A stretch of 63,887 nt of DNA, filler included, from Hausera hauseri (lineage: Eukaryota), in assembly GCA_046269625.1 (NCBI GenBank). It is 11 parts of 11 records of this genome, joined end to end, with 100 filler letters (N's around TTAATTAATTAA, not from the genome) between each part and the next. Parts side by side here need not be neighbours in the genome. Positions count along the whole stretch, not along the records: positions 14,855 to 18,833 come from JBJURY010843302.1; 10 more parts are not named here. The stretch is one strand, 5' to 3'. The notes beneath the pieces were generated by a model. The model saw nothing but the letters and a program-made list of their open reading frames with translations. It was not told the origin of the DNA and ran no database searches. Each line of letters starts with the position of its first letter. Position 1 is the stretch's first letter. This document shows positions 11,040 through 49,409 of the stretch, one piece after another. Position numbers and translations under genes: made by a program.

Positions 11040-12236
11040 CTCCTTTGCTGTTAATGGTTTAAATTTACTAGGATATAGTGATTGTTTATCAATTGTGCCA
11101 TGAGGTAATTTGATTATCAACGTTGTAGAGGAGCATTTTGTGGTTTAGTTTACATTTTCGATCGATATCAGTCGACACAGACTTAGTATAACAGCTTCGT
11201 ATGGTGGAAATTCTATGGTAGATTTTATCACATGTTGATACTGGTTCATCAAAATAGTTCCAAAATTCCAATAAAATTTCACATGAATGTAAGTACAAAA
11301 TCCACGCTGATTAAAAATATGGACAGCCAATGTCGAAATGCGCAAATTGTTTTCTTTTTGATTCGCGGTAAACGGTAGCAAACTACTCTCATTGATTAAC
11401 TTTGTTTTGTTCCACAGAACAAAAAGGGCTGTACTGAAGAACATACCATCATCTGTCGATGTCGAATGACCTAAGATTTTCAGTTTCGGTTTGTAAATTA
11501 CAAATTTTTCTTTTGATTCGCCTCGGGAAGTAAAGGCCGTTTGGGTCTGTATTGTATTCCAAGGTAAATATAAAATTAGGATACAAACTGTAAGGTTCTA
11601 CCTTACAAAAAAAGGGAAAAAAGGAAATAAAAATAAATAAATAAATATTAAATAACCAAAACATTCAAAATTAATCGAATCCCGTACCAGTCCTACTCGG
11701 ACTTTCTCACGGTACGGGAGCTACTGCAACGGAGCCTCTTCGTACGGCACTTAACCAGGCTGGGGCGGAACGACCCCTATTCTTTACCCTGTGGAACATT
11801 CCATAGGTTTTATGAGGACGGGGAAAATCGGCGTCTTTTCGACTTGTCGGTTTTCCTGCCGGTCTTCTTAAGACTGATGGCTGCCGCCGACCATTTCTAC
11901 GAATCGCTGGCTCCATCAGAGAGCCAGATGATATCTGACCGTCGAACCTCTGACAAGCCGCAGGCTAGGACAGTGAGCTCCAGCCCAGAGGAAGGTCCCA
12001 TACCGCGCCGTCGACGTCGGTTGGAACCGACAAGACTTGAAACAACATCAACTGATTCCAGTTCGGACAACGTTACGACTTGTCCGCGCGGAAATCCGAG
12101 GATTAACCCGGCACTCTTCTCAGCCGAGGATTCGTACGCCTCGGCGGACGATTTACACGAACTGAATAAAAATTATTTTCATTGTTTTTTTGTCTTATAA
12201 GCGTTTGTTTCAGTCGTTTTATTCGACTATATTCAC

Positions 12237-14450
12237 ATGTTTGTCCTTTTAATATTTAAAAGTTCGATCCACAAGGATATGAACACTAAAATGGTGGCAG
12301 CGAATACCGCACACATGCCCTGGTCCGTGAATACTGGTCCGGGTATTTCGATAAACACAGCCGCTGAAAACAATCGGGTTCATACTTATAGAAACACCAT
12401 AAAAATTAATCCGGTGAATACACTCATTAGTGCCGTCGAAAACAATCCGGCCACAAATGCTCACATCAGTAAACGTGATGATAACTATACGGCTGTCAAT
12501 CACAAAATCACAACAAGCGATTCTGAACAAGTGATAAAATATCTTAGCACTATTACACGCACTGATATCGTAAAATCGGAATACAAACCCTATTATACTA
12601 GCCGTGCCAACATAGCACACATAACAAGCGAAAATTCGCTACTTAACTATTTATCTAATCGTCAGTCGATTGAACTCGCCAAAATAATTCACTATTGTGA
12701 AACGACACCGGCCGATAGTATGCCAAACGAAGTACAACTCATTGTACAAAATTGGTGTCATACGAAAACTCATCGCTTTTCATCTACTCTAGACATGTCG
12801 GGAATATAGAAGTTTTAAAACAACAATATCCCGAGCATATATTTTCTGATAATGGAAAATTATTGAGTAAGTATAATTGCGTAATTAGTGCAATTTTTAC
12901 ATCAAACAACACTATACTGCCGACTCCCAAAATAAAAGGAGTCGTTGACATACATACGCCTGGAAAAATGCATAAACTGCTTCATCAGCCCCGGCTAAGC
13001 CATCCAAATTAACGTGTCCCACCTTCTTCATAGGTTCGGACGGAACTCCATTGAAGTGGCTCCATGTGTATGAAGCATGGACTACTCAATGCAGCATCAC
13101 CGGCCAACAAAACAAGGCCTTAGATTTGATACAATATCTCCACACAACAACGCTTGCAGCAATAACGGATCTGGACACGTTATTGTCAGACGAAAAACCG
13201 TTTGACAAGATCAAAGCAGCTATGTGCAAAGCATATCTGCCATCCAAACAATACCAATTCAACCTGGTTTTCACCAAGCGACAAAAAAGGAACATGAAAC
13301 CTTCTGATCTGCTCCAAAAATTACGCTCAGAACAACCAGAACATACTACGGAGCTACTTACTCAGTAGTTTGCCTAAGCAAATCCAAGCGACACTTGTAC
13401 TATTACCGTCCGATATTACATTGGACGATATGGCATCAAAAGCCGACAAAATATATGAGTGCACTAAAGGCACAGTAGAATCCGCACTAACGGAAAACAT
13501 CAACTCCGTCACAGCGACCCAGAAAAATCTGCTGGTCACAATTATTCAGGCACTGTAGACACTTGTAACGCATAAGAATCTGACAGCCAGAGACAAACCG
13601 TATTCTCGGTGCCAATCTCCCAAGAGAAAGAGAGGCATCCTCAATATATAAAAATGCAAATATAAAAATGCAAAACACTTGTATTTATCACAATCACTTG
13701 GGTCCAGATGCAAAAATCTGTCGACTTGGCTACAAATTTTACAAGCTATCAAAAAAACTAAATGGACCCAGGTGACGAACGGCAAGTAGACTGGAAACTC
13801 GATCACCACAACTGCCGTATGCAAATATCGAACGCATTGTCGATGCTATTTTCACTCTCGAGGTGGAGCCACTACATTCTAATATCTCGAAACAACTCGA
13901 TTTTGTAATCAACACTGGTGAAGCTTTATCGCTGATACCTAGCGCATACTTTAGACCTACGCTGGTCTCTCATTCATCGCTCAAAGCTGCTAATAGAACT
14001 CGAATAGCATCCACAGTTACAATGTACCTACAATTTTATCTACAAGGCCGACCATACGCTTGGTCATTCACATTGGTTGATGTTATGCAACCAGTCATAG
14101 GTACTGACTTCCTAAGTCACTGCCATCTCACAGTTGATTGCCAAAATCAACAACTCGTCAGCCAGAATAATCCAATACCTCCACTCGCATTCACGCTAAC
14201 CATAAACGTGGTCTCGGGCATAAAAATCGCAAATCCAATTGACATCGCATCATTGCTCCAAACGCAATACCAAAACTTGTTGAAACGCTCAACACAACCA
14301 ACACTGAAAGAGGTGAAAACTTCACACTTTCTCGTCACATGATGTGGTCGACCAATTCGGCAACCCCGGAGGGACCTTGACCCCGTCAAGCGAGCAGCGG
14401 CGGAAGCCGAATTTTGACGCCCCGAAGAAACTGATATAATTGGCCGCTAG
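12237..14450 (+). mobile_element. gag-pol: Degenerate Ty3/Gypsy retrotransposon: N-terminally extended gag, protease, start of pol
   Basis: Gag-like KWLHVYE...KPSDLLQKLR...LPKQIQATL...LDDMASKADKIYE; protease LDFVINTGEALSLIP...PVIGTDFLSH (catalytic D changed to N); stops and frameshifts. Confidence 0.8.
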
Positions 14451-14854: not shown

Positions 14855-16236
14855 GGCACTGGTTCTCTTTTGGGCATTCTAATCCATTTGTCGTTGTCGA
14901 TCTTAAACATTGGCGACATATTGAAGGTGCAATTGTATAATGGAGTAGGCTTCACGTTAACATTTAATAATATTCTAGTTACTGGCATCGCAAATCTCGG
15001 TTCTGTATGGTAATCCACAGGTAATTCCATTGTACATTTTTCTGTTGGTCTGACTGATACTTCTATCTTCTTACATTCTATTCTTATCAAAACCTTGCCC
15101 ATCACTCTGCCAATAATTCCATCGCCGAAGGGCATTACGGGCGCTACCATGTCCGGATTTGTTATTACCAATGCCATTTAATGCGCATTATTTCATAATT
15201 CATCTTACATTCATTCATTATTATTTCTCTATATAAACCTCTAATTTCTTTCTTTACGCAATTGATTAGAAAATCGATTTTATTTTCAAAATATTGCGTC
15301 AACTTTATGTCTTGTCTATTTTGATTTTCGCACCGGATATTTCTTTTCTGGATAAGAAAATACACTTGTAATTGGTTTTTGATATTTCTTCGCCACATTC
15401 AATTGCCACTCCCGTGATTTTGAATCGCGCCATTTCTTCCGGATTTTCCTAATATATAATTGTAGATACTTCTGTCATCTTGACTTCCTTTGTTCCTTCT
15501 TTATATGTGGCTGTTTTTTTCCCTCCGTTTTCCCTACCGTTTTATAAAATTTTCCTTCTTTCAACAGCGTTAACTGACATTTACTTGCCGAGGTTTCCCA
15601 TGTCATTTTTAATTCTGCAGTATCATATTCGCCATTATCATACTCAAACTCACTCATAATCGTCATTAATTTTGTCTGTGAGTCGAATAACACTTCATAT
15701 TCTTTCAACTGGATCTGATAATTTTCGATGACTACCGTTCTAGGCGCACATCATAATCCACTCCTTTACAAGTACCTTCCATTGTTTTATCTATTCTTCC
15801 TGCCCTGAATATTCTGGTATATTTTATCCGATTTGGAACTGCCGGTATATGCGCGTTTTGTATAGTTATGATACCAATATTAAAAGCATCTTGACATTCC
15901 GCTCGCAATATAATGATTGGTTCGAACGGTGTCGTGGGCTTAATTACGGCTGAATTTCCAGAATAATAGGCACAATTTAACAGAAAAAAATGATCTTTTT
16001 ACGTAACATTCCCTGATTTTTGCTTTTATGAATTCGGATTCTTGATATACCCAGTATGTAAGACCACTTGCCGTTGTTAACTGTTCTGGGTCACCTTCTG
16101 GGCATTTCTCCAAATCCACTAGATAGTACTTCTGACCTTCACTAGGTTTAGAACGATCATAAGCTACTATACCTACAGCTTTCGGCATTAACAATGACAT
16201 TATTAGGAGAATTTGAATAATCTCCATCATTGACAT
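14855..16236 (-). pseudogene. env: Chuvirus-like (class III-type) envelope glycoprotein, N-terminal two thirds, frameshifted
   Basis: Hydrophobic signal peptide MEIIQILLIMSLLMPKAVG then IVAYD(R). Later motifs CxVKRS, C-x-L, KIDF, C..NYEI, GRVMGKVL..C, C..ELPV, PVTRIL, C...MSPMF, WI. Closely parallels 23319-24800. Confidence 0.85.
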
Positions 16237-16239
16237 ACC

Positions 16240-17890
16240 TGTTATGTCTGGTCTAGAGGTGTTTGGTTAAGTCGTGTTTGGCGTATCTATTAATCTTTCT
16301 CGTTCCCCTGACCTTACTATATTGGTCATCAGACTGGTCAGTCAACCACCTCTACACTGAGTCCAACTTCCTAACGTATCTTTTAAGATCTTCACGACTG
16401 TCCTTATATTCCGCTCAATTTCTTCTAGATTTTGAGTCTGATGATTAATTACTATTATTTTATATAGAACATATAATATAGCCATTCGAGCTTTCTCTCA
16501 TGTAATTCCAGTTACAAACATTTTTTTCTAAAATATTCAGCTCATGTAGTTCATTTATCCGTTCTTCATCTAAGTTCTCACAGAATTGTCTATTTATTCG
16601 TAGCATATTATTATGTAACGTTGTGAACGGTTTGTCTGGGATTATTGCCTGCATGTCAAATGAAGCAAATGACGTATACAGCCTAGCCAATAACGTTCTT
16701 AGTAATGGACCTATGTCCACCGATTCGGGAGTACCATTTGTTCCTGCTAGTAATAAACGTCTTACTGTTTCTTCATTCCTATTTTTTCTGTTACGAATGT
16801 CACTTATTTTTGTCCCTTTCGGCCTACCTCTTCTCTTGGCTTCCGTTTGAACCGTGACATTTAGTGCATCACCCACAGGGATTTCTTCTACTCCGTGTGG
16901 TTCCATTTCCCTTAGGATATTCTTTACTGTTGTCTGTGCTCTTGCTTCTGGATGTATTTCTGTTATCGTTATAGGATTGTAGTTCTCACTTCTACATCCA
17001 ATTCTCAATAATTTATCGTAATTATATAACATCCTTCCATAATAATTTAATCCATAAGGGCTCCCTTGATAAAAAGGTTTCAGCTCCTCAATCTTTTCTC
17101 TTAATATTTGTATATCATCTGCTTCGTTTATCCTAATGACTCTCATATCTTGGTTTTCTTTCTTTATTGTTATACGTATGACTTCATTTCTTCCTTTCTC
17201 GTCTTCGGCAGCTTTGGCCAACACTGTCCTGGCTATTTCTCTTACAGGACTCTTATCTTGGGCTAATAGTACCAACTGAGGTAAGATCTCATTCATCCTT
17301 TCCACCGTTACTTTATTGGTAAGTATCTTCAATATTGTGGTAGTCGTTTTATCCACATCGATTATATTATCAAGATCGACAGTCATTACTGAGTGAATGA
17401 TATCTTCCTCTTCGCCTAAATCTACGCCTGGGTTCTTTATTACCTGGTCTAATATAACGTCATCAAATATTGGCGTAGCTTAAGTTTCTTCTGGACTAAA
17501 TGAGGGTGTACTGAGGTTACTCTTCTTTCTTCCTCTTTTCTTTTCCTTTACTACCTCTTCCCTCTCTGTTGATGTTTCTCTTGATTCAACCTCTATGTCA
17601 ACTATTTTCTTATTGCCTTTCTTTCTTCTTTTATGAGATACTTGTTTCTCTTGTTGATTTTCTATTATATAAATGCTACTTTCTTTCAATCTTTGCTGCT
17701 ACCTTTTATACTCCTTTAGTTCTATTTCTAATTGCTTCTTCGTGCGTTGTGATAATGTATCGTTGCTATAATTGACACTTTCTTTCTTTTTGTCTTTTTT
17801 CTTAATTTCTTTTTCACTAACACTATCATTTATTTCGTATTCCTTATCGGAGGATTTATCTGACGTGGCCAGTGTATAATCTTTCGTTTG
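16240..17890 (-). pseudogene. Unknown extension 'X' between gag and env (K/E-rich linker plus a helical domain with an RRGRPKG motif)
   Basis: ORFs 17480-17689 and 16460-17386 are in the same frame as the gag zinc-knuckle ORF, separated only by single stop codons. Homologous to about 28830-30060. Confidence 0.7.
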
Positions 17891-18833
17891 TTATTTCTTC
17901 TTATTACTTGATTTCGAGGAATTTCCTATACGTGATCTACATGACTTGGCTATATGCCCATATTTATTACAATTAAAACATTTCAGTTTTCCTTCGGAAT
18001 CTATGTTAGGTAATGATCTTCCATGCTTCTTAGATTTCTTCTTATAACTTACCTTTTCCCCATCATTCCGTAAATTAAATCTTACTTTCTTTTCCACATT
18101 TGACTCAGCTTCCGTGGCTGACGTTTGTGAAGGGCTTCTGTTTCGTTCATATCGTTGATACCGTTGAGTACTATTGTTTCTTATTTTATCGTAACCATTG
18201 TTATTACTTTTAGACTTGTTCCACCTATACAGTTCCGCATTTAGTTCGGCTTTTCGCGCCTTTTTTATTGCTTCTTGGAACGTAGGTGGGTCTGCTTGTG
18301 AGATTATCATCCTTAATCATTCTTCTAATCCGTATTGAAATTGGGCCAACAAGGCGTTATTCCTTATCGTAACGTCCGGATATGCTCTTCATGCAAGTTT
18401 TCCAATGCGCATACAAAGTCCTGGATTGTTTCGTCTTTACGTTGGCTCCTGCTTCTGAAATCTCCAACTCTTCCCAGAGGGATCTATTAAAAACTTTTGA
18501 GGCAGTCTTTCTTTAATTACTTTCCAGTCCTTCTTGTCTTCATCCGGCATCTGGAAATAAATCATAAGAGCCGTCCCTTTGAGATGAAGGGGTAATCTTT
18601 CTACTCTTTGTTTGTCGTCCCAGACGAAACTTTTGGAATATACTTCATATTCCATCATGAAATCCTGTATATCTTCTTTGCCCGAAAATTTTTTCATCGG
18701 TAAGGTGAAATCAGCTTTCGACTGAATTACCTGCTCTACGTTATGGTTAGCCATTAGTTCGTCCTCACTTAGATTTCTTAAATACTCTAGTCCGAATGGT
18801 TCCTTTTCCTCTGGGTAATAAATTGTTCCTTTC
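17891..18833 (-). pseudogene. gag: Retrotransposon Gag (capsid region and CCHC zinc knuckle)
   Basis: KKFSGKEDIQDFMMEYE...WDDKQR...LPLHLKGTALMIY (retrotransposon gag); PPTFQEAIKKARKAE; KCFNCNKYGHIAKSC (CX2CX4HX4C). Confidence 0.92.
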
Positions 18834-19987
18834 NNNNNNNNNNNNNNNNNNNNNNNNNNNNNNNNNNNNNNNNNNNNTTAATTAATTAANNNNNNNNNNN
18901 NNNNNNNNNNNNNNNNNNNNNNNNNNNNNNNNNTCTCCTATATCCTTCCTTCTAGCATGCCCAACACTTTAATCCACTATTTGGTGGTCTAGTTGGCTTC
19001 ATGTTGTCGGCGCATCCGCGCCATATAGTACGCCTGCTTGTGTGTATCGCTTTACAAAGTCAATATTTACTATTTTCACCTATTAATCATGCATATGTGT
19101 ATCGTTTTGGCTTACCCACAACCCATCTATGAACCACATCGATTTTAGTCAGTAGGAGGAAAATGTAAGGAATCGGCATTTCCACCAATCAGGTTTCGTA
19201 ATACATTTAAACTAAACAAATTTGGGGAGTGTGACCAAATGGGTATTTCCCCAATAATTTTCCGTATGAAATGTGTTATATATTGGGGTGGCCCTTATTC
19301 AACTCCCGCTATATAACAATAGTTACTCTTGAAATTTCAAAATGTTATGCAGGTCGGTCTATCGTAATCGAATAGACAGAATGTACCTTAACGATTTTAA
19401 ATTGCTATGCAGGTAAATTGCTTGCGGTCCTGTGCCGATAATTATCAAGGCTCTCTCAGCTATATAAATTAAGTATTAGTTTAACCTTAATGACGTCAAA
19501 TCACCCTTAATGGGGTGATGGAAATTATATGCAGTTTAGAAGAAAATTTACCAAAAACACGAACACAATTTTCGATAATTAACTGAATCAACAACAAAAG
19601 AATAGTCAGTAAGTAGTTCTCGATCGAATCTGTCGTTACTGAATTTAATTCAGAAATTCGCAAATTCTCAACTTCTCTGGTCAACACTGTCCCTTTCATT
19701 CAGTCTTCTCTCTTTATATAGTTTAGGTCGCCATAATTTATTAATTTGACATTCTATTATTTTCTTTGTTCCATGCATTATTTAGAATTAATTTTCATGC
19801 TCAACTATATACAATTCATTTTTTTCTACGGCTATTTTATAATAATACATTTCTAACTCGTCTATTTTCATTAATAATATATGGCTTGATTCTGTAACGC
19901 AGCCTAACTACAGTAATATTATACATAATGTATTCCAATTCTAATTAATTATTCACAGCGTTGATGATTGCTTTTGTTTGCTACTAT

Positions 19988-20510
19988 TCATAACATTTCT
20001 CTTCCCTGAGCGGCATCCTCGGATGTGCCCATTGCGTCAGGAGAGGTGCCGTGGGAACGAGGCCGTCGTAACATTTCCATACGTCTTTTTAGACTGGGGC
20101 CGGAACTGGTTCTAGGCTGGTCTTCTCTGGGATTCATTTCCAGTTCATAACTATGGTAGGGTTTTATCCTCACTATTCTAGTATAGCTACTGTTTGAGTA
20201 ATACTTCAAGTCAGCAGCCTGAGCTCTGCATACTGCAAATGTGGTTTTTCCATTATCCAACGTCCATTTCTCTAATCAGTCTGCATTATTTGTGTCGACA
20301 ATCAGGGTTATTCAGTACTACATGTCCTTGTTTCAGGTTGGCCTCACACATGGGGCATTCATTTTCTTCTCTTTTCCAATTTTCATCGTCCAAGTCAACT
20401 CTTAGCATAATCTCAATCGGCTGTATTATCAATCCTTCATCATCTTGGTACAAATAAGCATATATTCTCTTCTTCGGATTTATGGAACTTTTCTTGGGAT
20501 CACATCCCAC
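19988..20510 (-). pseudogene. RING-finger domain at the end of a decayed accessory polyprotein
   Basis: ECPMCEANLKQGHVVLNNPDCRHK*C...NGKTTFAVCRAQ gives RING-type Cys/His spacing, partly eroded. Confidence 0.55.
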
Positions 20511-21383
20511 AGGTATTAGAGTCTAATCGCTGATAGTGTCTCGATCTAAATCGGGAACTTCACCAGTCGATTGGTATTTTTTATATTGCTTCATTAATAA
20601 CAACTTTATTGATTTATCCACGGGGACCAAAAGTTTCCCGTTCCGTCTGGACTGAAATATCGGGGCAACGTATTTTCCGATCATAGGATTTTCCCAGACA
20701 TGCGTGTTCTCATAAACTTGTCTGGCAGGCATTAATTTGACGAAAAACATCGCCTCTTTAATCTTTTGTTTGCTATAATATTCGGTTGCTATTAACATCC
20801 TGGGATAATCTGCCGTAGTGGCGTAGTGTATATCTTCCGTAGAGTTCTTTTTCCGTAATACGTTTATTTCTGTTATCTGCTCTTTCTGTTTGCTCAGTAT
20901 CGTCATGGACATCTAGGATCGGAACTGTAGGTTTGTTCTTGATGCTTCTGCTGGTTTTCTTGGATTATCTTGTTTTAGTTTTAAATTCTTGTCATCTTTT
21001 AATCTCTTTTCACCTTCTTTACTTTTTTCTTAAAGAAATAATCGAGGAAAGAGGTTTTCCTTTTTTGTCTTCCCAGTTTCGATCTCTGAAATCCTATCCT
21101 TTCCTTTCAGATGTCTCCGACGAATTTGGGGTATTTTAAACAGATTTTCGGTTGTTGTGACGCCATAACTTGTACTTGGTCTCTCATCCGACTGTATTTT
21201 GCCTTCTGTCTTCTCCGTTTTCAACCCTTTTATAGTTATTTGATAATTCCATTTTGGCGTGATTTCGACATTCCTGGGTGGAGAGTATGGGCGGAAATGT
21301 TTTCGGTATCGTGTGCTGAGTCCTTCGGGCTTGGGGAAATTCCGTAGATTTTGTCCGGGGTTGCTGGGAATCCATTCATGTTC

Positions 21384-21880
21384 TCACTTCAATCCATCAT
21401 TTATATCCCTTAGATATTGGGATCGTTGACTAGCGGACAACAGTCGGCTTATTTTTATATTTCCTCCAGTCATGGCCTCTACCATTAACTTGAATCGACC
21501 TTCCACGGTCGGTGGTAGATGACCCTTCTTCTCTTTGACCTTAATTCCCATTTGTCCCATAACAGTTGGGTGTATTTCTATCTTAGTCCAGCTGTGTGTG
21601 TTACCGGTATATCTAATTTTTTTATCATCCTCTGTCTGATACCCCACTAAGATGTATCCGTAGAGGCATTGTGCTACTTCCTGTTTCACTAACTTGGAAT
21701 CCTTCCCATGATTTAATTGTTCCCTTTTAATCCCGGTAACTTCTGCATAAGTTTCTAGTACTTTCTTTCTCGGGTTAATTATTTTCGAATAGACTTCGGT
21801 CCCGTTTTCTTCTCGGATGGATATTTCGATTGGGATATAATTTCCCTCCATAGTTTATTGCGACAATCCTGAGATTCCTA
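21384..21880 (-). pseudogene. DEDDh 3'-5' exonuclease-like domain (REX4/ISG20-like), degenerate
   Basis: RIVAIN.../EISIREENGTEVYSKIINPRKKVLETYAEVTGIKREQLNHGKDSKLVKQEVAQCLYGYILVGYQTEDD follows the REX4 pattern (VAxD..RVSIVxxxGxxVYDxxVxP....xSGI...L......VxxEVxxxLxGxILVGH...D). Catalytic residues appear altered. Confidence 0.7.
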
Positions 21881-22586
21881 TCATCGGTTACCAATCTAAA
21901 CGAATGTAGATGTGCGTCCTGTTCTTTTTCAGTGGGTCTTTGCCTAAACTCTAAGGGCGGAAATGAGATGGGTATTGTCTCCTCTTCAGTTATTTCGACC
22001 ATCATTTTTACAGGTAAGGCGGCTACACGAAATTCCAGCTCGTAGTTATGGAAATTCCTACTGTCAAATACAAACGTGCTAAACCGGCTTTGCTTTCCTT
22101 GGAAAGAATCCCATTTTTGATCTTTCAGCCGATAGTAGATCTCGTCGGCCAAGTGTACATATATCTTCTGTTCCTTGTCCGTTTGGTGCTGGGTGATCTG
22201 TTTCAAAGGGTATGTTCTGGCATCCTTATTCTCTCTCCAGGCATATAAATATATATCTCTGGCCTCTTCAGTCGTTCCTTTCAAACTGTTCGGTATCGTT
22301 AATTTTTCCGTATTGAACGAAGTTCTTTCTTTGTAATTCTGTATTGATTTGCCTATAGATGGCCTTTGAATTCGGGACCCGTACGGTCACATTGCTGCAA
22401 AAATCCGTCGATACTAAGTCGACTCGTAGTTCCCTCGGTGTCGATTCTAAGTCGGCTCGGGTTCATCTGGGTTTGATTACTTACCAATCTGAAAAAGAAA
22501 ATATAAAGGTTAATCTTAAAACAAAGGATGGTCTTAAACCCAAACCAATTCTTTGTGTGGTGACAGAATAACCTGATCTGTAATTG

Positions 22587-23218
22587 TCAGGTTATTTTAT
22601 CATAGGGGTCTATAGGGTCCTCCAATTCCCTTAGTTTCCATTCTGAATTTTTGTGACGCTTAGAATAACAGTTTTTGGCGACTAATCGAAAAATAGCGAT
22701 TGACATAATGAGAACAAACGTTGACAGTACTGCAATAGATATAATCGGTAGGGCAGTTAATCCTGGTGGTGCTCGAGTAGTTACAGGCGTTGTAGTTTCG
22801 TCGTCTATATTTTCAGGTGTATGCGACTCTGCGTGAGTTTCGTCTAGGGTATGCAATGTAATTGTTTGGGTTTGTTTATTCTTTGCATGCACTTGTATTA
22901 TCTATTCGGATTGCGGTTTTAGCAAGTTGCACTCTATTTGATAATTATTCTTAAATAATGTTACAATTTGATTATTATATATTGTCCGACAGCTTATGTG
23001 TATATCATAATTTTGTTTCCTTTCCACAAAGAACACGATTTTATACTGATGAGCCGAAAAACTGATAGGTATACTCTCCAATTCTGTTTTAGGTATGTCG
23101 TTTATAGTGACAGTTGGACTAATCTTTTTGGTCGTGGTTTCCACTAAAATTTTCCAAATTCTATTTTCTGGATAGTAAGTTCGTAATTGTATACTTGGTT
23201 GATTAGGCCGTACCTCGT
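22587..23218 (-). pseudogene. C-terminal part of a type I membrane protein (beta-rich ectodomain, Thr-rich stalk, TM, short tail)
   Basis: ETTTPVTTRAPP, then LPIISIAVLSTFVLIMSIAIF, then basic RLVAKN. ORFs 22902-23144 and 22587-22892 share a frame. Confidence 0.65.
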
Positions 23219-23318: not shown

Positions 23319-25190
23319 TCGAATAACTATACAAAACGCGCAGATACCAGCAGTACGAAGCAAAATAAAATATTCTCGAATCTTTCGAGCCGGAAGAATA
23401 GATAAAACGATGGAACGTATCTGTAAAGGAGCGGATTATGACGTGGGAGGTACGATCGCGCCAAGAACAGTTGCCGTCGAAGATTATCAAGTTCAATTGA
23501 AAGAAGATGAAGGACTATTTGACTAGCAAACCAGGCTCATGACTAATTTGCAAATATTATAATGGGGAATGTGATATTGAAGAATCTAAAATGACTTGGG
23601 AAGTTGGTGCGAATCGGTGCAACCTTACAATACTAAAGGAAGGGAAATTCAATAAGACGGTAGGAAAAACAGCCGAATGAGAATTGATAACATATAAAGA
23701 AGGAATTAACGAAGTAAAGATGATAGAAGTAGCAACGGTAGTATATTCAGAAAAACCCGAAGAAATGATGCGATTTAAAATCGTGGGAACGAGTAATAAG
23801 TGTGATGAAGAGATGTTTAAAAACAATTATAAAGGCATATATCTCTCCACTGAAGAAGTAGCTCAAGCCAAAATAAAAATAGATAAGAAGGATATAAAGT
23901 TGACGCAATACTTTGATAATAAAATCGATTTTGTAATCAACTACGTCAGGAAAGAGATCAGAAGTCTATATAGGGAAATTATACTGAACGAATGCAAACT
24001 GAATTATGAAATAATACGGAATAAGATGGCGTTAGTAATAACCATTCCCGACATGGTAGATCCGGTGATGCAATTTGGCTATGGGGTGATTGGAAGAGTA
24101 ATTGGAGAAGTATTGATAATTATTGGGTGCAAAAAGGTAGAAGTAGCGATTAGATCTACGGAGGAATGTACTTTCCAAATACAGGTAGTTTACAATATGG
24201 AGCTTAGGTACGTGGTGCCGGTAACAAGAATATTACTAGACGCTAATACAAGACCAACCCAACTGGATAATTGTACTTTCAATATGTCACCGATGTATGA
24301 GTTGGACGATAAATGGATTAGAATGCCGAAAAGAGAACCGGTAACAAAACCAGAAACGTTAAGTCTAATTAATTTACAAAATCAGAAATTTGAACCACTT
24401 ACCGGCATATCACAAAGAGGAATTTATACACAGCAGAATTTAGAAGACTACAGACGAATGTTACTGTTTCCCCAGCAGAGACAACGAGTAATAACGGAGT
24501 TAACAAGAAGAGTGATGTGGAACGGAGAAGGTTCACCACAATGGGAAAATTTAATGGGAAGAGATTATTTGAAGAAAGTCACCAGAAATGTTATGAAAAA
24601 GATGTGGGGAAAATTCCTGTATTTTGGTCAGGCTGCTTCAGGATTTTTAGCAATATATTTCATCATTAGTGCCTTACGAACGATATTCACTGCACTTGAT
24701 AAAGCTTACGGAATACATGCAGCAGTAGGATGCTCATGGGAAATCCTTATAGTGGTAATATCAGCAGTTGCTAGTTGTTTCCTAGCAAACCATGACGCAA
24801 GATGGAAAAGGAAAATACTTAAAGAAAGAAAAAACGATATCGAGAAGAATTCGCCATATGGTACTTTAAATGGTAAAAATAACGATGACGAAAATGATTC
24901 AAATATCAAATTTAAAAGTGGTAGATATCTAACAGGATTTAGACGATTTTCATTAAAATCACGAAGACAGAAGTATAAACGAAAACTGGTTACTGATTTA
25001 CCTCAGTTAGATTCTGCAGACGAATATCACGGACAAATATATAACAAACAAATGTTAAGTCCATTAGCTCCTCAATATATGAAACATAGAGGAATGTATT
25101 CCACGTATCAGGTATTGCGCCTAAAACAGGATTACGAAGAAAATCCGGCATCATATAGTCGTGAACCTACGTGCAAAATGAGTGATAAGA
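23319..25190 (+). CDS. env: Chuvirus-like fusion glycoprotein (env) with C-terminal hydrophobic segments and tail, continuing in frame into the protease
   Basis: 548-aa ORF 23684-25330: CxLTILKEG (just upstream), KIDFV, C..NYEI, GRVIGEVL..GC, C...VPVTRIL, C..NMSPMY, GIYTQQNLEDYRRMLLFP, WGKFLYFGQAASGFLAIYFI, YGIHAAVGCSWEIL. This pattern is typical of chuvirus-like G proteins. Confidence 0.88.
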
Positions 25191-27712
25191 ATGGGCCCCA
25201 GTCGGCGTTGAGACCAGAAATAGGTATCGAAGTAGATAAACATACCTTAACGGCCCTAATGCATACGGGATCAACCATCACAATAATGGGGAAAAACCAA
25301 TTACCCAAAGAATTAGTCAGTAAATTATGAAAGCCTGAAGAAACGTTGATTAACGTCGGAGCATTTGGTATGGCGGAAGAGATAAAGATGGTTTTGGATG
25401 CAAAAATCAAAATCTGTGGCCAGACAATAAACCATACCATAAGAGTGGCCAAAAATTTAACAAATGAAATACTGATTGGATGTGATGTATTATATCAATT
25501 GGATAACGTGTATATAGATGTTAAAACTGGCCAACTTAGAGCGTTTGAAAATCGATATGAAGAAGCAGTTACATTAACTAAAGATGTTTTAATTCCGCCA
25601 CGTTTAGAGATAGTAGTGCCCGGTAAAATAGAATACAGACCATTGACGAGCTATGTGCACTTTAAGCCGTTTCCACAAATAATGGAGAAACATAACATCC
25701 TTGTTGCACCACACATAGACAGGATAAGGGACGGAAAAATCCATTTGAAAATTTGTAACACGGGAGCAAAGGAGAAGTGGCTGAAAAAGAATGAGACTTG
25801 GGAAAGCAATAGATGTCGAAGAAGTACCAAAAGGAAACGATTAATTCGGTAATCTCAGAAGTAGATGAGATCGAGAAACTAATGACGAAGAAATTGAAAG
25901 GAAAACTAAATAAAGATAAAGAGAAGAAAACTACCCACATTAGTTGGGAAGAAAAATTACAAAATTGTAATATATCTAATGAAGAAAGAAGAATGCTCAT
26001 CCAGCTGTTGGAGAAAAACAACAACCGATTCGCTCAAAATGACTATGATTATGAATGATGAACGTAATACAACATGTGATCAAGTTGAAGGAGGGTCAAA
26101 ACAAATCTATAAAGAAGCGGCCATACAGACTGGCATACGACAAAAAGAAAGAAGCTCATTAAAATTTAAATGAAATGAGGGAAAACCAAATAATACGACC
26201 CACATGCTCCCCATGGACGGCTCCAATAGTGATGGTTAAAAAGAAAGATAGAACTATGAGATTCTGCATAGACTATAGAGTGTTAAATGAAATAACGGAA
26301 ACAGACACGTACCCGTTACCAAGTATTGACGAAATATTAGATAAACTGCATGGCTCAACCATATTAAAAACAATTGACCTACAAAAGGATATTGACAAGT
26401 AAAAGTGAAGGAGGAAGATAAGCCGAAAACGGCCTTTTCTATAGGCGAAGGGTTATGGGACTTCAATAGAATGCCATTTGGATTAAAGAATGGACCCAAA
26501 CTTTTCAAAGAGGAACGTAATTATTACTTCTAGATGCACCACATGCTATAGTGTATATCGATGACGTAATCACAGCATCATCGGATTTCCAACAACACTT
26601 AAAGGACTTACAAGACATCTTTTATAGTTGTGTAGTAATGGGTTTAAAAATAAACCCGAAGAAATGCTCATTTACTCAAACCAAAGTTGACTTTCTCGGA
26701 CATCGACTGGATAGGTACAATGTAAAACTTCAGGACAGACTATTAAATAAAATTAAAGATTTTCCAAAACCCACCACCGTTAAAAAATTATGCCGATTTT
26801 TAGGACTAGCAAATTACTATCGAAAATTGATAACAAATTTTAGTAAACTAGCCAAACCGCTATATGAATTACTACGTGATGATTTAGAAAAGGTAATATG
26901 GACAAGTGATTGCCAAAAGGCTTTCGAGGACCTGAAAGAAAAATTATTGACCGCCCCTATTCTGATATACCCTGATATGACTAAACCGTTCATATTGGCA
27001 ACGGATGCAAGTGACTATGGAGTAGAAGCGGTGTTATCACAAAAGTGCGAAGATGGTAAAGAATATCCAGTTGCATATGTGTCGAGAAAATTAAACAACT
27101 GTCAAAAGAAGTATGCCGTTATTGAAAAAGAATTGCTAGCGGTAATATTAGCACTGGAAGTATTCTCACCGAATATTAGTGAGAATAAACCGTTAGTAAT
27201 TTATACAGACCATCGACCACTGCAATGGCTGAAGAAACACGAAAACCCCAATAGTATACTACTACGATGGGCTTTAAAACTTCAACCTTATGCGTTAGAT
27301 TTTCAATATAAGCCTGACACACGAAATGCGAATGCGGATTATTTATCAAGAATGCCACAGAAAGAGATAGAAAAGAAATAAGTAATTGCAGCGGTATGGA
27401 GTATGGATAAATCGGTAGAGAAGATAAAAGAGAATTAACGAGAGGATGAGGAAATAAAGCCATCAGAAATTATATACAAAATAAAATTATACCAAAGGAT
27501 AGAGAATTGGCTCGTCATTTAACCAGATTTAGCTACGCATACGAAGAGAAAGATGGATTGCTGTATTATATTCATCAAAATGGGCATGCACTAGTAATTC
27601 CAAAGAAGAATATTACGGTATTACTGACCAAATATCATGACGCATTACTAGGTGGGCATCAATCAGTATGAAAATCAATAAACAAATTGAAAAGAAAATA
27701 CTTCTGGTCTAC
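25190..27712 (+). pseudogene. pol: Ty3/Gypsy pol: aspartic protease, spacer domain, reverse transcriptase, RNase H, integrase zinc-binding start
   Basis: TALMHTGSTIT...ILIGCDVL (protease, D to H); SPWTAPIVMVKKKD..RFCIDYR.LN..DTYPLP; MPFGLKN; VYIDDVI; TDASDYG..AVL; KELLAV; TDHRPL; RWAL; YHD.LLGGH...KYFW. RT-RH-IN order. Confidence 0.96.
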
Positions 27713-27812: not shown

Positions 27813-28827
27813 TGGCATATATAAGAGCCAATTTTGTTCTCATGATCTTGGTATCTAATTTACAGTCATGTATTATCATTTTATGATATAATTCAGTTAT
27901 TCCGACTTGCTCTTTGTAATAGAAATAATCGTCTCTGTTTTTCAGATAATCCTCAATTCGGACATCTTGCGTTTCTAGTTTGTATGTCTTTGCATTTATT
28001 TTCGTTTCTGAGACGAAAAATGCCTCATAGTTAGTAGCGAACATCTGATTAGTATAGTGGGTGTAGGATGTTCTGATATATCCTCGCGAGTCCTCGACTT
28101 GGTATTAGATTTATCCACGTATCGCTTTCCGGTAGTTGCGTTAAACTTCAGTTCCTTAATTTCAATAAAATTACAACTTCTTCCAAATGGAGGTTTCCAT
28201 ATTATAACAGAACTTCTAAAAGCACAGGTTCCATATTGTAAATGACATTTCTGATTCTCAGTGTATAACTTAGTGATACTATGAAACATTACTTTCTGTG
28301 ATCGCATCTTTTATTCGTAGAAATCCACGACTATCACATTCGCTTGTAGTCCTTTCCCAGTGTCATATTTTGCTCCGTAACAATGTCCGCTATGCATATC
28401 TAACCTTCCGACCACTACCTTGTATGTCCTAATTATCTTTCCTGGTTGCATTTCTAATTGCATATTATCCCATTGTATCCTTCTAGTCTCTTTAACTTGC
28501 TTGCAATGTTGGCGTTCTAAATTCATTGGAATTAGAGGAGTTGTTAATTTGATTATTGAGGAATGTCCGTGTCCTAGTCCACAATGAAAAATGCTACAAG
28601 ATCGTCTCAGCATACATTTTATTCCATCTAACGATATTAGTTCTTGTTGTTGATACAGGAAATAATTTTTCTCTCGTGTTTCCAACTTGTGCAATCTGAC
28701 ATCTTCGCACACTTTCAGATCCATTAGGAAATAACGTATCGCAGTCGTAGACGGTAACAGCGCTTATGTGCTTTATTAACATCATCAAGGTGAGTAGGCT
28801 GATTAGCCAATTCGATTTATTTTTCAT
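27813..28827 (-). pseudogene. env: Second, divergent chuvirus-like envelope glycoprotein (N-terminal part)
   Basis: Signal peptide MKNKSNWLISLLTLMMLIKHISA then VTVYDC; LYQQQ; KCMLRRSCSIFHCGLGHGHSSII; GHCYG; CHLQYGTC...IIW; HDCKLDTKIMRTKLAL. Confidence 0.85.
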
Positions 28828-31796
28828 TAGCCAACATCCGCCGTTGTCAAATTACATAACATATCGTCGATTTTGTTACCCATCCGTCTGTCTTCTTCCT
28901 TGTCAAATAGTCTTGCCCAATTTACTTCGCAGGGCAATCTTCTCGCCGCTTTTCGTGCTAAGCTTACAGCTCTATTGATTCCATTTTCTAGATTGGGGTT
29001 ATTTTAATAGCTAAATATAGTAATACTTTCCTCAATTCCTCGTTGGTGTTTTTTACCATGATCTTTTCAATTACCCATTCATCGGTTAAGTTACTTTTCG
29101 ATAGTTTAAAACGTCAACTTCTCATCATTCTGGCTGCCTCGAATATTATCTTTTCTTTATCATCTAACATATCACCTTGAAAGCTTGAATAATTTACAAT
29201 TCGTATTAAATTCGTCATTAACTCATTTAATTTTTCATTGTACTGAAAGCATAAATCGACATCTGCCTCAATTCTCTAATCAATTCTCGATTGTAGTCCA
29301 TTTCTTCTCGCGTTTTCTTACGTCTACCAACTGGATGTTTCGACCTTGGGCCCTTAGTGGTAATTTCACTTAGTGGTACTAAATTTATATCGTATTGTTC
29401 CTTTTCCTCGTCCGTTTGTAAATACTCAAAATACATTGCAGCATCTCAGATTACACTTAATTTGTCCTACGCATTGCTGTGTCCTGGCCTTACGCGTGGT
29501 TTCTTCTTTCGTCTGTTTGTTAGTATTTATTGCTACTACCCGATTTGTTTTGTCGGGGATAAGCCCTACATCTATTAGTTGTTCTAGGTCGTCGAGTATT
29601 CTACCTCAAAGTAAAATCTGTAATTTAGCTCATTTGTTTCGCAATTGTTTAATAACCATTCTCTTACGTCTTTTACAAAGGAATATGTAGTTAACTCGCA
29701 TTCTTTTTCGTCCATTTACTCGGACAATATCATTACTTTCATAAATACCTCAGGTTTACCCCTCAAGATTTTAGCCTATTTCCTTATCAAGAGTTTCGGC
29801 ACCGTGCTATAAATTGTATTCTCACTAGATAATTTAGTTAATGTCGGAATAAGTTGTCTTAACTTACTTTCAGTAATGCTTACGTTAATTAGTTTGATTA
29901 AATCTGTTTCAGTTAGCGCTAAATCCAGTAGCATATTTACATTAAGTCTCCTGTTTTGCGGACATGTTTCTGTCTCATTTAGCTGTACTGGAGTCCCGGT
30001 TTTTTGGCAATTATCGCATCTAAGTATGCATCCCATTCCGGCTCGTTTCCAACATCTGGAAGTCTATAGTCCACTAAGGCTGTATTTGTTCTTTGCACAT
30101 TTTCTCGGATTTCTTTCAATCTGGGCTGTATTTCCTTCATCTGCATAGTTCCGAAACCTATTCCGTTTCCACAGGCATACTGAATTATTTTCAGTAATTC
30201 GCCTAATTCATTAGAATTAATGAGTCCCTTTTGGTGATAATCTGTTAGTTCAATAATTACATCTCTTTGCCATCTTTGTACGAATTCGCGCTTGTTTTTG
30301 ATCTCTGATTCGATAAAAACATACTTATTCCGGTAGATTTTGAGCTCTTTTGCTAATTCGTCTAACCTTTGTTTGGTTTTAATGCAGGTTTCTTTAACCT
30401 GTCTTATTTTAGGCATCAATTGCCTCATCTTTTCATCGTTAATTTCTACCATTTCTACTAATAGGAATGCTAGTTCGTGCGTTTCATTTATGACTTGTGA
30501 GTCGGGATCTATGGCATCCAGCAATTTCCTTACGAACTTAGATTCCTGAAAACTAAGACGCTGATCATGTCTTATCTTCGTCAACTCTGTATGGAAATTC
30601 TCATCTGATCCGGCCATCCATTCTTGTGGTTTATGAAGAAATTTTATTGCGTCCGTTAAAACGACTCGATGTTCCGGACAAATGTCTAGGGTTTCAGTAT
30701 CTTAAACAGAGATGTCATCGATAGGTTTATCTGTAAAATGTTGAACTCCTTCTAGTAGGACATTCCTTAACCTTGGATGGAAATTGCAAGTCATATTTCG
30801 CTTTTATGTAAAATTCGTCTCTTCGACCATTTTATAGATGTCTTCCAGTATAGTTGCTTCTTGTTTCTTCTTCATAAATTTAGTCGTCGTAATCTTCGAA
30901 TTGAATTCGAATGTCTATTTCCGCATTTATTGTGTCTAAATTACATCCGCTTTCTTTTAATTGTTTCTTTATAGAATGCTTACTCTCTAAAAATTCTTTC
31001 TTCCGGTTTTCTACTAATTTACTTAGTCGCGTTACTAATTCGGACAATTCCGACAACTGATTGGCGATTATTGGCTTTGCCATTATAGCCTTGTCTAGCA
31101 TTTTATATTCCTCATCTGGGCCTTTAATAAAGTTCATAACCCGGCTGACGTACTTGAACTCCTCTTTGTACTCGTCAAATTCTACGAGGCAAGCTTTTAC
31201 TACGTATTGTGTCTCCTCGTGGTTCGGTAACATAATTCGGTTTCTCATGCTGTAAATCTGTGCTCGCTTTTCATTTTCCGTTTTTATTCGGTTCTCCAAA
31301 TTCGTATATCGTTTAGGTACGGTAAAAGAAACTTTTATCATCGCCATCAGGGAAGGAATATCCACTGGTTCTACACCCAGTATTTCCAAATCGATATTAC
31401 TTCGATTAATCATTGCACAACGAATTTCATTCATCATGCGCTCTAAATTGCGGACCACTCTCTTCAGTTTTGTGTTTGTTTCCAAGGTAGACAGTAGCGT
31501 CTGAGTTTTAGTGACTTTCACGTCAACAGTATCTTCGTTTTTACTCCATCCTTCTAAAAATTCTACTCCTCTTTTAATCCACAACTCTAATTCGTGGTTT
31601 CATTTTATCAACGTATCTCGTGGCATATCTTTCGGTTGTCTTATTTCAATTGCTTCATCGAGTTTTCCTTCACTCCACAATTTTAAACTCTTGTATAATT
31701 TTTCCGAAAATTGCTGTTTCTTGCCAGATATATCTGTTTGTTTACTAATCTGCTTGAGCCTTTTCAAATTGTGTCTGAGTATTTCTGGATTGTGAC
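28826..31796 (-). pseudogene. Long decayed ORF upstream of env: coiled-coil-like region plus a homolog of domain X
   Basis: K/E-rich helical ORFs 30880-31584 and 29979-30617. PEWDAYLDAIIAKKPG...LIKLINVSITESKLRQLIPTL parallels PIFDDVILDQVIKNPG...ILKILTNKVTVERMNEILPQL of contig 14855-18833. Confidence 0.65.
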
Positions 31797-45142: not shown

Positions 45143-46337
45143 TTCAAATATTCTTTTATACCCGCGAATTATCCGATACGAGGCTCATCTTTCATTTGTC
45201 ATATATGGTCTTTAAGCACCACCAAACTGGCAACAATACCACCGTTAATTTCGGAGGTTAAACGTTCTAATGAGGGTGTTTTTACCTCTTTATGGCAATC
45301 AAATCATCGTGCAGCAGCTAAAATTTATACCAAAAACACAGCTACTGGTCGTATTGTATATTGCAACGTTACTCTTGACGTCACTAAGCACTTACCGATT
45401 GGAACCCGAACACAGGAGTTATATTTGCATGAAACTCCCAACGCTCTTATCATCAAGCCTTCCGAAGAATTCGGTAACACATTCTCCACGTTGAACGATT
45501 CACCATTTGAATGGTCAATACATGCATCGGGTTTAAATAGCTATGCACAGGGCGTTCTGAGATTTATAACGCGGACTGAATTAGAATACTCAACGCTAAT
45601 GTCGATTGGAAATTTGCAGCAGCAAGGCCTTCAAGATTATATGCAGCTAGTCCGTGGTTTGAAATTAGGGTCCGCTAGAATTTCTTTAACATTTCGCGAC
45701 GAAAACGTCAGAAGTAATGTGCATAGTCAAAATGTTAGGCTTCTAGTCATGGCTAATGCTGCTTTATCGCCACAATGCACATACTTGCCTCCTAAAACTT
45801 ACATATCCTATAAAATACACTCTCATAGCCAAGGATCAACTATAAAAGCTAAACTTTCGAGACGTCAATATGCCCTCCTGGTTAACAACAGGATAACACA
45901 GCTCTTGATACGAAGTTATTAATTATTACTGCAAAAAATACGGCCAAACTGAACTTACACTTATCGACAGACATATCAAAGCAGAATTCCGACATACGTT
46001 GTCAGTTTTATTCGTCGTTGAAACGGGATTCTTGTCATTTCAAATTCCACCGGGAGAGAAAGTTTGGGTTTTACAAACAGCCAAACAAAATATGTATACT
46101 TTACCTGTTAAACCGTATGATTCTAATAGTCGTCAGATATACATGCCCGATAATACGCGTCCCGAACCTATTATTTCTGCAGGTAGCTCGGTTACCACGA
46201 AGTTTGTTATTCGCCGCGGCGGGGCTGAAGGCCCGGCCGCTCACCCTGTGCCACTGGATCGGACGGCACCGTTCGCTGACGCCCCACGACACGCCCCTGG
46301 CTATACATCCACATCGTTTTCTCGCTTCTTTTTTTAA
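45143..46337 (+). pseudogene. Unknown beta-rich ORF upstream of Gypsy gag
   Basis: Frame open from 45143 to 45922, followed by ORF 45999-46337; composition similar to the adjacent retroelement. Confidence 0.45.
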
Positions 46338-46528
46338 ACAAAAAACACATTTACACAATTGCATTAACACACGCAAACACTACACATATCAACAATGCCA
46401 TCTCCACTTTTCTTTGCACATCTGACTTTTACATCACACACAACAACTCTACAATACCTATCGCTGGAACCCTACAATCTTCTTTAACTGATATCTACCT
46501 CCATATACACTTTGGCATCCGTGTTGGC

Positions 46529-49409
46529 ATGAATTCATCGCCAACCATAAACACCACGGATAAAACCATCACGAAACCAAAATCTGTTATACTGCTTCAA
46601 AAACCCATTCCTACTTTTGCTAATAACCCTTCACCTACTACCCCTTCCGCTCCTTTCCCTCACTGCACTGAATTCTTTATTGGCAACGAAGGCTCCAGCA
46701 AAACTTGGTTGCAATTCCACCAATTGTGGCTACAAGTCAATAACGTGACGGATTCTTTAACTAAAGCACACAACCTCCCCTTCTTACTCACTAACAATAT
46801 CAAAACACGAATTCACAACATTATTGAAATCTCTGAACTTCCCGATCCATATTCACAACTCTTCAACGCTGTTCTTAAAATTACAAAACCCTCATTAAAC
46901 ACGATCATACAACGCTTCTTCCACGACAATGATATAGGCACACAACGATTATCAGACTTTTTACGCACCTCTCTAGCACATTTACAAACACTCGGCGTCA
47001 CTAAGGAACACAATCCAAAACTACTGCGCCACTACTTCCTCAATGCGTTACCCATCCAAATTCGGGCTCTAATTACCGTAATGGAGGACTCCACGGCTCT
47101 TGAAAAATGGGCCGAATTATTCGATAAAACACATGACGTTCTACACTTAAACACCCCATCAATAGTTTCGGCGGCAGTTGCCGCTACCGGTATCCGAAAC
47201 AACAACACATTAATACAGCAACAACTAAATTAATTACGTGACGAAAATACCGCACTACACGCAACAATTAACAATATTAACAACACATTACATGAACTTT
47301 CCCTCTCCCATTGAAGGGATTTTGTCACTGACCGCTTCCATTCTGTATCTACAAACCGATCACCATCACCTGCGCTGTTATCTATCTCTTATTATTACAC
47401 CAGATTCAATAAAAGTGACAAAAATGCTCTTTAGGGTGAAAATTTTATAACAACAGTTTTTCTTCAAACACTGTTGTTTGCATCTACCATGCAAGGTTTA
47501 AAAACCAAGCTGCACTTTCAAACAAGATACGAACAACGGACGTGCTACCTGTTCTTCTAATAGTCGTCCTAGTTCACCTTTTCAAAAAAAAACTAAATTT
47601 GCCGCCAGAAGTCAAGGCAAACTGTGGCAAAGGCCTACACGCCTCTTTTGCTGTCTTTACTCTAAAGGCTGCAATCACCGCTCCTGCAACGCAATCCGTT
47701 GATTTCCTCATTGATACAGGTGCAGCAGTTTCTTTATTACCACAAACCTTTCCTGTACAAAATTCACAATTTAGAATTAAGCTCTTATACACCGCTTCAG
47801 GTCAACCGCTGCACATCTCTGGCATAGCTAAGCTCTCTTTTATTTTACAAAATTTACTTCACCTTTCCACTGCACGTTCACAGTTGCTAACGTCTAGATG
47901 GCAATTCTAGGGTTTGATTTTCTATCACATTACAATTTATTGGTTGACTGCAGTCAACGATGTCTGAGGAGTGGCATCACTGGCAACGTTACTGAGCATG
48001 TCAATAGTATTTCGACTACCGCGCAGTCGATTGAGACGCAAAGATCAATTTTGAGAAAACCAAAAACTTCTTTGAATTTTCGTAATATTCCACTCCGTAA
48101 ATTTTTAAATAATAATGTTGAAATTCAGTCGAGGTTCGATGTCGCCAATTGTGGTACTGTCACCAACGTTAATTCACTTGACGAAATCACTTCATCCAAC
48201 ACCATTTTCAATTCGACCATCTTGCATCAAATACCACTTGACTGCACATCACCAAACAATTCACAAATTGCATCAACTACTACTCAAGCCGTTTCACCAT
48301 CATCACCAAATCTCTCACAGTTGCCTACAACATTACAGCAATTCGTCTACACATCATGTCCACGAGTACTCAAAACAGATCGTACGTTTACTCCTGCAAA
48401 CAGCATTGTACATCACATAATTACACAGCATCACGACCAATACTCCAAAAGATACGACCACTGTCACCCAGCCGTGAAAAGACCTAGAAACCGAATTTCT
48501 TGAACTAGAACGCTCCGGCATTGTACGCCGTTACAAATCTCCTTGGTCGTCACCTTTACATGTCGCACAAAAAAGGACGGAACTTTTAAACCATGTGGTG
48601 ATTACCGACAGTTGAACAACGTCACAATTATGGATCTATACCCCTTACCACTCATCAAGGATATCTTGCGTCGCCTTAATTCAATCTCAGTTTATTCGAC
48701 CATCGATTTGGCCAAAGCATACCACCAAATACCGGTGGCACCCGAAGACATAGAAAAAACTGCTGTCGCTACTCCTTTTGGCTTCTACGAGTACCTGTTT
48801 ATGCCTTTCGGTTTGCGAAATGCCACACAGACTTTTCAGCAACGTACAGACTCAATTCTCTTAGATTTTCCGTTTGCGCACCCTTATATTTATGATATTC
48901 TGATCGTTTCCTCTTCGGCCGAACAACACGAGGAACACCTTCGCGCAATATTCCAACGCCTTAACCACCATAATCTCCAAGTCCATTTTGACAAATGCCA
49001 TTTCTTCAAAAAACGCATCAACTTTTTAGGCCACGTTATTTCACCAGACGGCCACTCTCCTCAACCAGACCGAATTGAAGCCCTTAAAAATACCCAGTTA
49101 CCACGTACGACCACCAAAATGCGCAGCTTCCTTGGTACACTACACTTTTTACATAAATATGTACCATATTGCTTTGAATTGACAGCATCATTTTCACACT
49201 TAAGCTGCGGCAAAAACATCAGTCAATCCAGTGGACACATGAATTGGTTGACAAGTTTGATAAGCTACGCGAAGGAATTAAAACCGTCGACATTCTCTCT
49301 TTCCCCAAGCCTCATGCCGAACTCATCTTTACTACAGACGCTTCAACCACTGCAGTAGGTGCTGTACTCCACCAAATCCACAAAGGAGAAAATCAACCGC
49401 TAGAATTTT
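46529..49409 (+). mobile_element. gag-pol: Degenerate Ty3/Gypsy element: gag, protease, RT, start of RNase H
   Basis: gag 46529-47233; FLIDTGAAVSLLP; ILGFDFL; [10 protein letters not shown]...YPLP...IDLAKAYHQIPV..KTAVATPFG.YEY..MPFGLRNA; YIYD (mutated YIDD); TDASTTAVGAVLHQ. Confidence 0.93.

Follow-up and report, generated by a model that had tools for sequence, protein, structure and literature searches.

A decayed Ty3/gypsy retroelement of Hausera hauseri that probably encoded a single Gag-cargo-Env-Pol polyprotein

The closest described systems are the planarian Burro/GYPSM1 elements, in which an envelope gene (env) lies in frame between gag and pol in a single open reading frame (ORF) with the order Gag-CCHC-...-Ubi2/SUMO-like-BCL2-Env-PR-RT-RH-IN (PR, protease; RT, reverse transcriptase; RH, RNase H; IN, integrase; Arkhipova and Yushenova 2019, PMC6431247). 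An anti-apoptotic role for the Burro1 cargo is cited in PMC13465017, and GAG-ENV-POL elements with a gB-type env have been reported from Nematoda, Bryozoa and Platyhelminthes (Chary and Hayashi 2026, PMC13524379). We analyzed a 63,887-nucleotide stretch of Hausera hauseri DNA (assembly GCA_046269625.1; hereafter the window), and in particular its contig 14855-18833, which was read on the minus strand. We consider this contig, with a probability of roughly 0.75, to be a decayed Ty3/gypsy copy whose working form likely was one Gag-cargo-Env-Pol polyprotein, threaded through the membrane and cut into parts, and a compact relative of Burro; the host of the element is likely a flatworm. The nematode elements called NERVs, attributed to Sacco et al. 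2022, reportedly carry gag-env-pro-pol as one continuous ORF whose glycoprotein is of RNA-virus type; their hosts are nematodes, and no result obtained here ties the present element to the NERV clade.

The gene layout is already published for planarian elements. As in Burro/GYPSM1 (PMC6431247), env stands in frame between gag and pol and is akin to mononegavirus fusion proteins. Burro has a ubiquitin/SUMO-like and then a BCL2-like module right before env; in the present element the former has modest support, and the latter is at most a weak candidate. In both cases protease and RT are separated by an insert, which is dUTPase-like in Burro and here has no match in Pfam or the PDB (positions 25505-25849, plus strand, open over at least 115 codons). 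In contrast, the present element is far smaller, with ~790 amino acids (aa) before Env in P0001, a stop-free relative described below, and at least 866 codons in the window. It has one zinc knuckle rather than the two or three of Burro, and we found no BIR, RING, MATH or ankyrin match and no giant ORF1 of ~5000 aa.

A second set of relatives, Smed_errantivirus_1-5 of PMC13524379, resembles the element in gene order, env type and an N-terminal env motif, YQES, which occurs in four rows of the env table of that paper, all of them planarian. The coding spans of Smed 1-4, 2848-2974 codons, fit the 2451 codons found here plus the missing ends. However, the present env is distant by eye, hence a separate family, and the present copy is decayed. 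The available parts of the paper contained no single-ORF statement or cargo description, and its coordinates were examined as spans from the GAG start to the POL stop (with 3000 nucleotides on each side). These spans were a multiple of three in 43 of 45 GAG-ENV-POL rows, compared with 37 of 61 controls (Fisher p 2e-5); 53 of the 55 GAG-ENV-POL rows were considered, eight of which were dropped because a contig end cut them, and four of 65 controls, taken from two file parts, were dropped. The excess supports single ORFs indirectly.

In the contig 14855-18833, one minus-strand frame carries a capsid region, a CCHC zinc knuckle, a charged linker and a 338-codon ORF, termed X, that precedes env. 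Between 18319 and 16525, this frame contains four stops in 598 codons (18319, 17893, 17701 and 17482), whereas the best frame of each of 2000 shuffles averaged 40.9 stops, with at least 25 in every case, which rules out chance collinearity of Gag, linker and X. An earlier sequence-only reading of the locus had placed the zinc-knuckle ORF and the X ORFs in one frame broken by single stops, and these counts bear it out. Beyond ~16523 the open frame becomes that of a hydrophobic segment and the env start, with stops at 16500, 16344 and 16269. Alignment with P0001 by tblastn placed the switch at 16523/16524, within the interval 16521-16527 where a slip had been suspected, and the continuation quoted for that slip does lie in the env frame, where three stops precede the hydrophobic segment.

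The Gag part had a Ty3/Arc-type capsid together with a CCHC knuckle. The capsid region (18241-18833) is cut at the contig end and is interrupted by stops at 18391 and 18319 and by a short out-of-frame patch at ~18475-18397; it was 40.6% identical to P0001 21-224, with 53% and 50% in two segments. The single knuckle (17936-17983) matched PF00098 with an E-value of 1.3e-5, above the cut-off, and the capsid of P0001 (residues 25-178) matched Arc2 (E 0.0068). Neighbours of Gag in the ESM Atlas were retrotransposon Gag clusters, which at scores below 0.9 serve as a lead only. The charged linker (17483-17923) contains the stops 17893 and 17701 and is 30% identical to P0001 216-372, which is partly predicted to form a coiled coil (helices at 244-299, with a predicted local distance difference test score, pLDDT, of 57-87 by 10-residue block). 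As had been noted from the sequence, a protease is absent after the knuckle: none of the three minus frames gave a Pfam protease match there, and no D[ST]G motif was present from the knuckle to the end of X. A motif scan of the window Gag frame, P0001 1-790 and a 140-aa Env tail described below revealed no PPxY, P[ST]AP or YPxL.

A scan of 1.84 billion protein representatives with X returned two proteins, P0001 and P0002; the latter is a chitin-binding repeat protein, and its match is likely spurious. P0001 is a single stop-free ORF of 1130 aa that ends in mid-Env and reads Gag, knuckle, linker, X, hydrophobic segment and Env (PF24664 at 793-980) in order. It is collinear with the window copy through the single switch at 16523/16524, with identities of 28% in the gag frame (192-688) and 33.5% in the env frame (688-1022); by segment, the identity was 30% in the linker, 36% in X, 49% at the junction (688-752) and 49% in the signal and Env start. 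From knuckle to signal, the window copy has six stops, of which five align with a P0001 residue and one, 17893, with a gap. Hydropathy of P0001 showed one peak, at 784-802, of 1.77, its highest value. Since P0001 has no methionine from 714 to 800, the hydrophobic segment is internal. P0001 thus supplied the uninterrupted Gag-X-Env reading with an internal signal-like segment that had been proposed from the window copy. In metagenome contigs, P0001 had no match, and none of four RT loci showed env similarity.

The Pol half was found in another part of the window, which consists of 12 contigs with N spacers between them. Neighbouring contigs are not linked: ten of the 11 joins are N44-12 nt-N44 spacers, and the remaining join is a run of 100 N with a 77-nucleotide direct repeat on both sides (56174-56427). 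In the contig 23319-27712, a 549-aa ORF (23681-25327, plus strand) runs through the Env ectodomain, two hydrophobic segments (24614-24790), a 140-codon tail and the start of the protease. PF24664 (E 6.4e-64) and RVP (E 0.0017) both matched this ORF, which supports the proposed in-frame fusion of Env to protease, and the 140-codon tail stayed open in none of 20000 shuffles. With the hydropathy peaks on either side, the ectodomain is of the gB/chuvirus type flanked by hydrophobic segments. A decayed Pol follows (25211-27707, plus strand), composed of protease, the insert noted above, RT, RNase H and the zinc finger of integrase; the RVP match (4-97 of 101, E 7.1e-8) runs through a stop at 25328 inside the protease domain, after which RT, RNase H and Integrase_H2C2 were recognized in order by Pfam. 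The Ty3-type PR-RT-RH-IN order was seen in this contig only. Ty3 Gag-Pol (E 2.6e-37) was among the two best PDB matches, and the RT/RNase H chains ranking below these two had E 1e-25 or weaker. A BEL/Pao element was rejected: no such Pfam family matched, and the RT was closest to Ty3.

The two env-bearing contigs overlap over 1031 nucleotides with an identity of 71%. Over 187 codons, the proportions of synonymous and nonsynonymous differences (pS and pN) were 0.71 and 0.15, and their ratio as substitution rates (dN/dS) was 0.08, an imprecise value at a dS near saturation; three of the four blocks listed were used, and the fourth overlapped another. On these sequence comparisons, the two contigs represent separate subfamilies, both shaped by purifying selection, and the nucleotide identity and near-saturated synonymous sites exclude that they are one copy. 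The sequence-only reading, in which the two envs matched closely and the contigs were stitched into one element, failed in this respect, as the result is a composite of two subfamilies. Because the overlap is only 71% identical, the full gene order is inferred from two halves, and env was found between gag and protease in these overlapping halves rather than in one record. Both contigs break off within coding sequence, short of any long terminal repeats (LTRs). Of the Gag-X-Env-PR-RT-RH-IN polyprotein originally proposed, Gag-X-Env as one ORF (P0001) and Env-PR as one ORF stand, and the joining of the two contigs into one element does not.

X would begin with a four-helix domain (17197-17479), whose counterpart in P0001 (381-460) was modelled at a pLDDT of 78-86 with no fold match at E<=0.001. 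The next part (16943-17200) carries, with modest support, a ubiquitin-like (UBL) domain: a two-row profile of the window and P0001 matched the RAD23 UBL with E 0.0019, and 12 of its 16 PDB matches were ubiquitin-like. In Pfam, P0001 gave a weak ubiquitin match at 473-522 (E 0.031), the P0001 row matched PF00240 with E 0.0043, below the cut-off, and the window row gave no match. An RGRP motif (16817-16831), which we take to be AT-hook-like, was common to the window and P0001 in a motif scan and in their alignment. The last part of X and the junction (16344-16636) span the switch at 16523/16524 and the stops 16500 and 16344, and may weakly suggest a Bcl-2-like domain directly before Env. PF00452 (Bcl-2) matched P0001 651-748 over positions 6-100 of 100 with E 0.055, below the cut-off, and this match ends in a W-x4-GGW motif, presumably resembling BH2, ~35 residues before the hydrophobic segment. 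The PDB profile search, the structure model and the fold search gave no support for the Bcl-2-like domain. AlphaFold models of X and of P0001, each with a mean pLDDT of 42, had no fold match at E<=0.001, the P0001 prediction contained no confident model of the gB fold of Env, and the ESM Atlas held no usable match to X.

The internal hydrophobic segment of the window copy (16165-16236) is a predicted signal or signal-anchor for Env; its Kyte-Doolittle value of 2.18 was the only peak of at least 1.5 from Gag to 15945. The Env ectodomain (14857-16164) is a gB/chuvirus-type fusion protein that is cut at the contig end and interrupted by several additional frame changes and stops. It matched PF24664 with E 1.1e-4 (profile 1-80) and E 3e-14 (profile 351-445), and was 49% identical to P0001 787-870. 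The window also contains a third, distant env copy in 27813-31796 (minus strand; PF24664 E 3e-10, 27.5% identical to P0001), with a hydrophobic segment at ~28806. Upstream of it are weak collinear X-like matches (29952-29728 and 29671-29459), preceded by ~600 codons of ORFs that look helical and gave no knuckle match; this contig may hold a larger element of this type.

From this arrangement, we infer the following course for the polyprotein. Gag, the linker and the ubiquitin-like and possible Bcl-2-like domains would remain cytosolic, and the internal hydrophobic segment would direct the Env ectodomain into the lumen of the endoplasmic reticulum, where signal peptidase would cleave the segment. 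Env ends with two hydrophobic segments, the second of which is followed by a basic run and would cross the membrane, so that the tail, protease, RT, RNase H and integrase would be back in the cytosol. The protease of the element would then free Pol and trim Gag. Gag and Pol would initially be tethered to the Env-bearing membrane, which would aid joint packaging.

Copies were compared by using contig pieces of one public run (X1), which covers part of the stretch and may be related to the source of the window. We mapped 15363 pieces onto the stretch at all levels of likeness (804 at >=99% identity and 5690 at <90%), so the element is a large repeat family; summed depth in X1 is, however, no copy number. 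X1 contains many copies of the element, and the window copy itself is broken. Among the position differences listed (40 of 898), the gag-frame stops 18319, 17893 and 17701 differed at their first base in >99% of the summed depth (77, 33 and 49 X1 contigs, respectively). The stop 17893, directly after the knuckle, is thus private to the window copy. Comparison of copies had been named as the way to tell decay from true ORF ends, and for these three stops, nearly absent elsewhere in X1, it points to decay; the stops 17482, 16500, 16344 and 16269 lie outside the differences listed.

The frame switch itself admits a different explanation: Gag-X would be an ORF of its own, and ribosomes would enter Env-Pol through a programmed frameshift at the A-run near 16523, so that Gag-X is made in excess and the fusion protein in minor amounts. 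Ty3 frameshifts between gag and pol, the switch site is a homopolymer run, and such a shift would remove the difficulty that a single ORF poses for the Gag-to-Pol ratio; moreover, a length difference at 16521 was present in just 32.8 of 268.2 depth (five X1 contigs). However, P0001 is continuous without a shift, the frame also changes at several other places in the capsid and env of the window copy, and the switch would split the possible Bcl-2-like domain. The depth of 268 at 16521, compared with 3056 at 16484 and 2227 at 16581, is what would be expected if most short pieces fail to bridge a lesion confined to this copy, and fits such a lesion without proving it. We therefore regard a programmed frameshift as improbable.

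Splicing was also considered: the element would be one ORF in DNA, with Gag-only, Gag-Pol minus Env or subgenomic Env messages giving the main products and the full polyprotein being minor, which is compatible with the single polyprotein that we favor. Particle assembly does not usually call for Gag, Env and Pol in equal amounts, related elements commonly splice their env or gag messages, and the window copy has methionines just upstream of the hydrophobic segment. P0001, however, has no such methionine, and protein conservation extends across the junction (49%); we give this scheme a small chance. Insertion of a captured block of X and glycoprotein between gag and protease had been first proposed; joint capture from an RNA virus, with X as a nucleoprotein- or matrix-like gene, appears very improbable. 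In its favor, Env belongs to PF24664, whose members are glycoproteins of negative-strand RNA viruses, and the weak X-like signal before the third env (29952-29459; 17.9 bits against a maximum of 7.8 in 150 local shuffles) indicates that X and env travel together. Such joint inheritance would, however, also follow from descent of the whole element. The ubiquitin-like domain and weak Bcl-2 match are host-type modules in the order of the Burro cargo, and X, like Env, has no relative in viral contigs, its only matches among the 1.84 billion representatives being P0001 and the likely spurious P0002.

Several points weigh against the single-polyprotein interpretation. None of the records examined runs from Gag to Pol: P0001, one sequence on one contig, and 14855-18833 both end in Env, and the Env-Pol contig belongs to the other subfamily. 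The stops that fall outside the 40 differences listed and the low share of X1 depth with a length difference at 16521 count on the same side, as does the multiple-of-three rate of the controls, which at 61% is well above one third. The ubiquitin-like and Bcl-2 matches are below the Pfam cut-offs; support for the former is modest because the region was picked after a weak match had already been seen, and the P0001 model folded neither part as expected. The membrane topology is a prediction from hydropathy. Finally, word-seeded and thus weak searches found no homolog of X among proteins of 593-2000 aa, of P0001 370-800 among proteins of up to 620 aa, or of Env-PR among proteins of 962-2745 aa, the last of which missed P0001 itself.

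Further features of the window were observed in other contigs. In 18934-23218 (minus strand), a decayed ORF encodes a Thr/Pro-rich stalk and a hydrophobic segment (~23216-22620), and further long frames there gave no Pfam match; this contig may represent accessory cargo from an element of this type. An unbroken ORF at 45143-45922 (plus strand) contains NUP210 Ig-like domains 1-3 (best E 1.2e-22) and lies upstream of unassigned ORFs and an RT (48504-49358) in 46280-49358 (plus strand), of which 46613-47155 is 36% like 39379-38885; the NUP210-like ORF is either a host exon or a captured piece. A weak DUF7041 match at 12976-13365 (plus strand; E 8.8e-4, below the cut-off) stands among several collinear ORFs at 11652-14342, likely the gag region of another retroelement.

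We tentatively raise a further possibility, which we consider rather unlikely: the segment before Env may serve both as the tail anchor of the Bcl-2-like domain and as the internal signal of Env. Cleavage would then leave a membrane-anchored Gag-UBL-Bcl-2-like protein as a matrix substitute and possibly a death blocker, and compact and giant flatworm elements alike would share UBL-Bcl-2-Env as their conserved core. The available parts of the literature on these elements contained no statement of such a dual role, and no test of how a protein of this kind is threaded, cut and balanced in particle building. The present locus extends the flatworm-type one-frame elements by one more family, by two additional subfamilies or relatives within the window and by an independent relative that lacks stops. 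Being compact, it would offer easier access to the UBL-Bcl-2-signal-Env junction than the 5000-aa Burro protein does.

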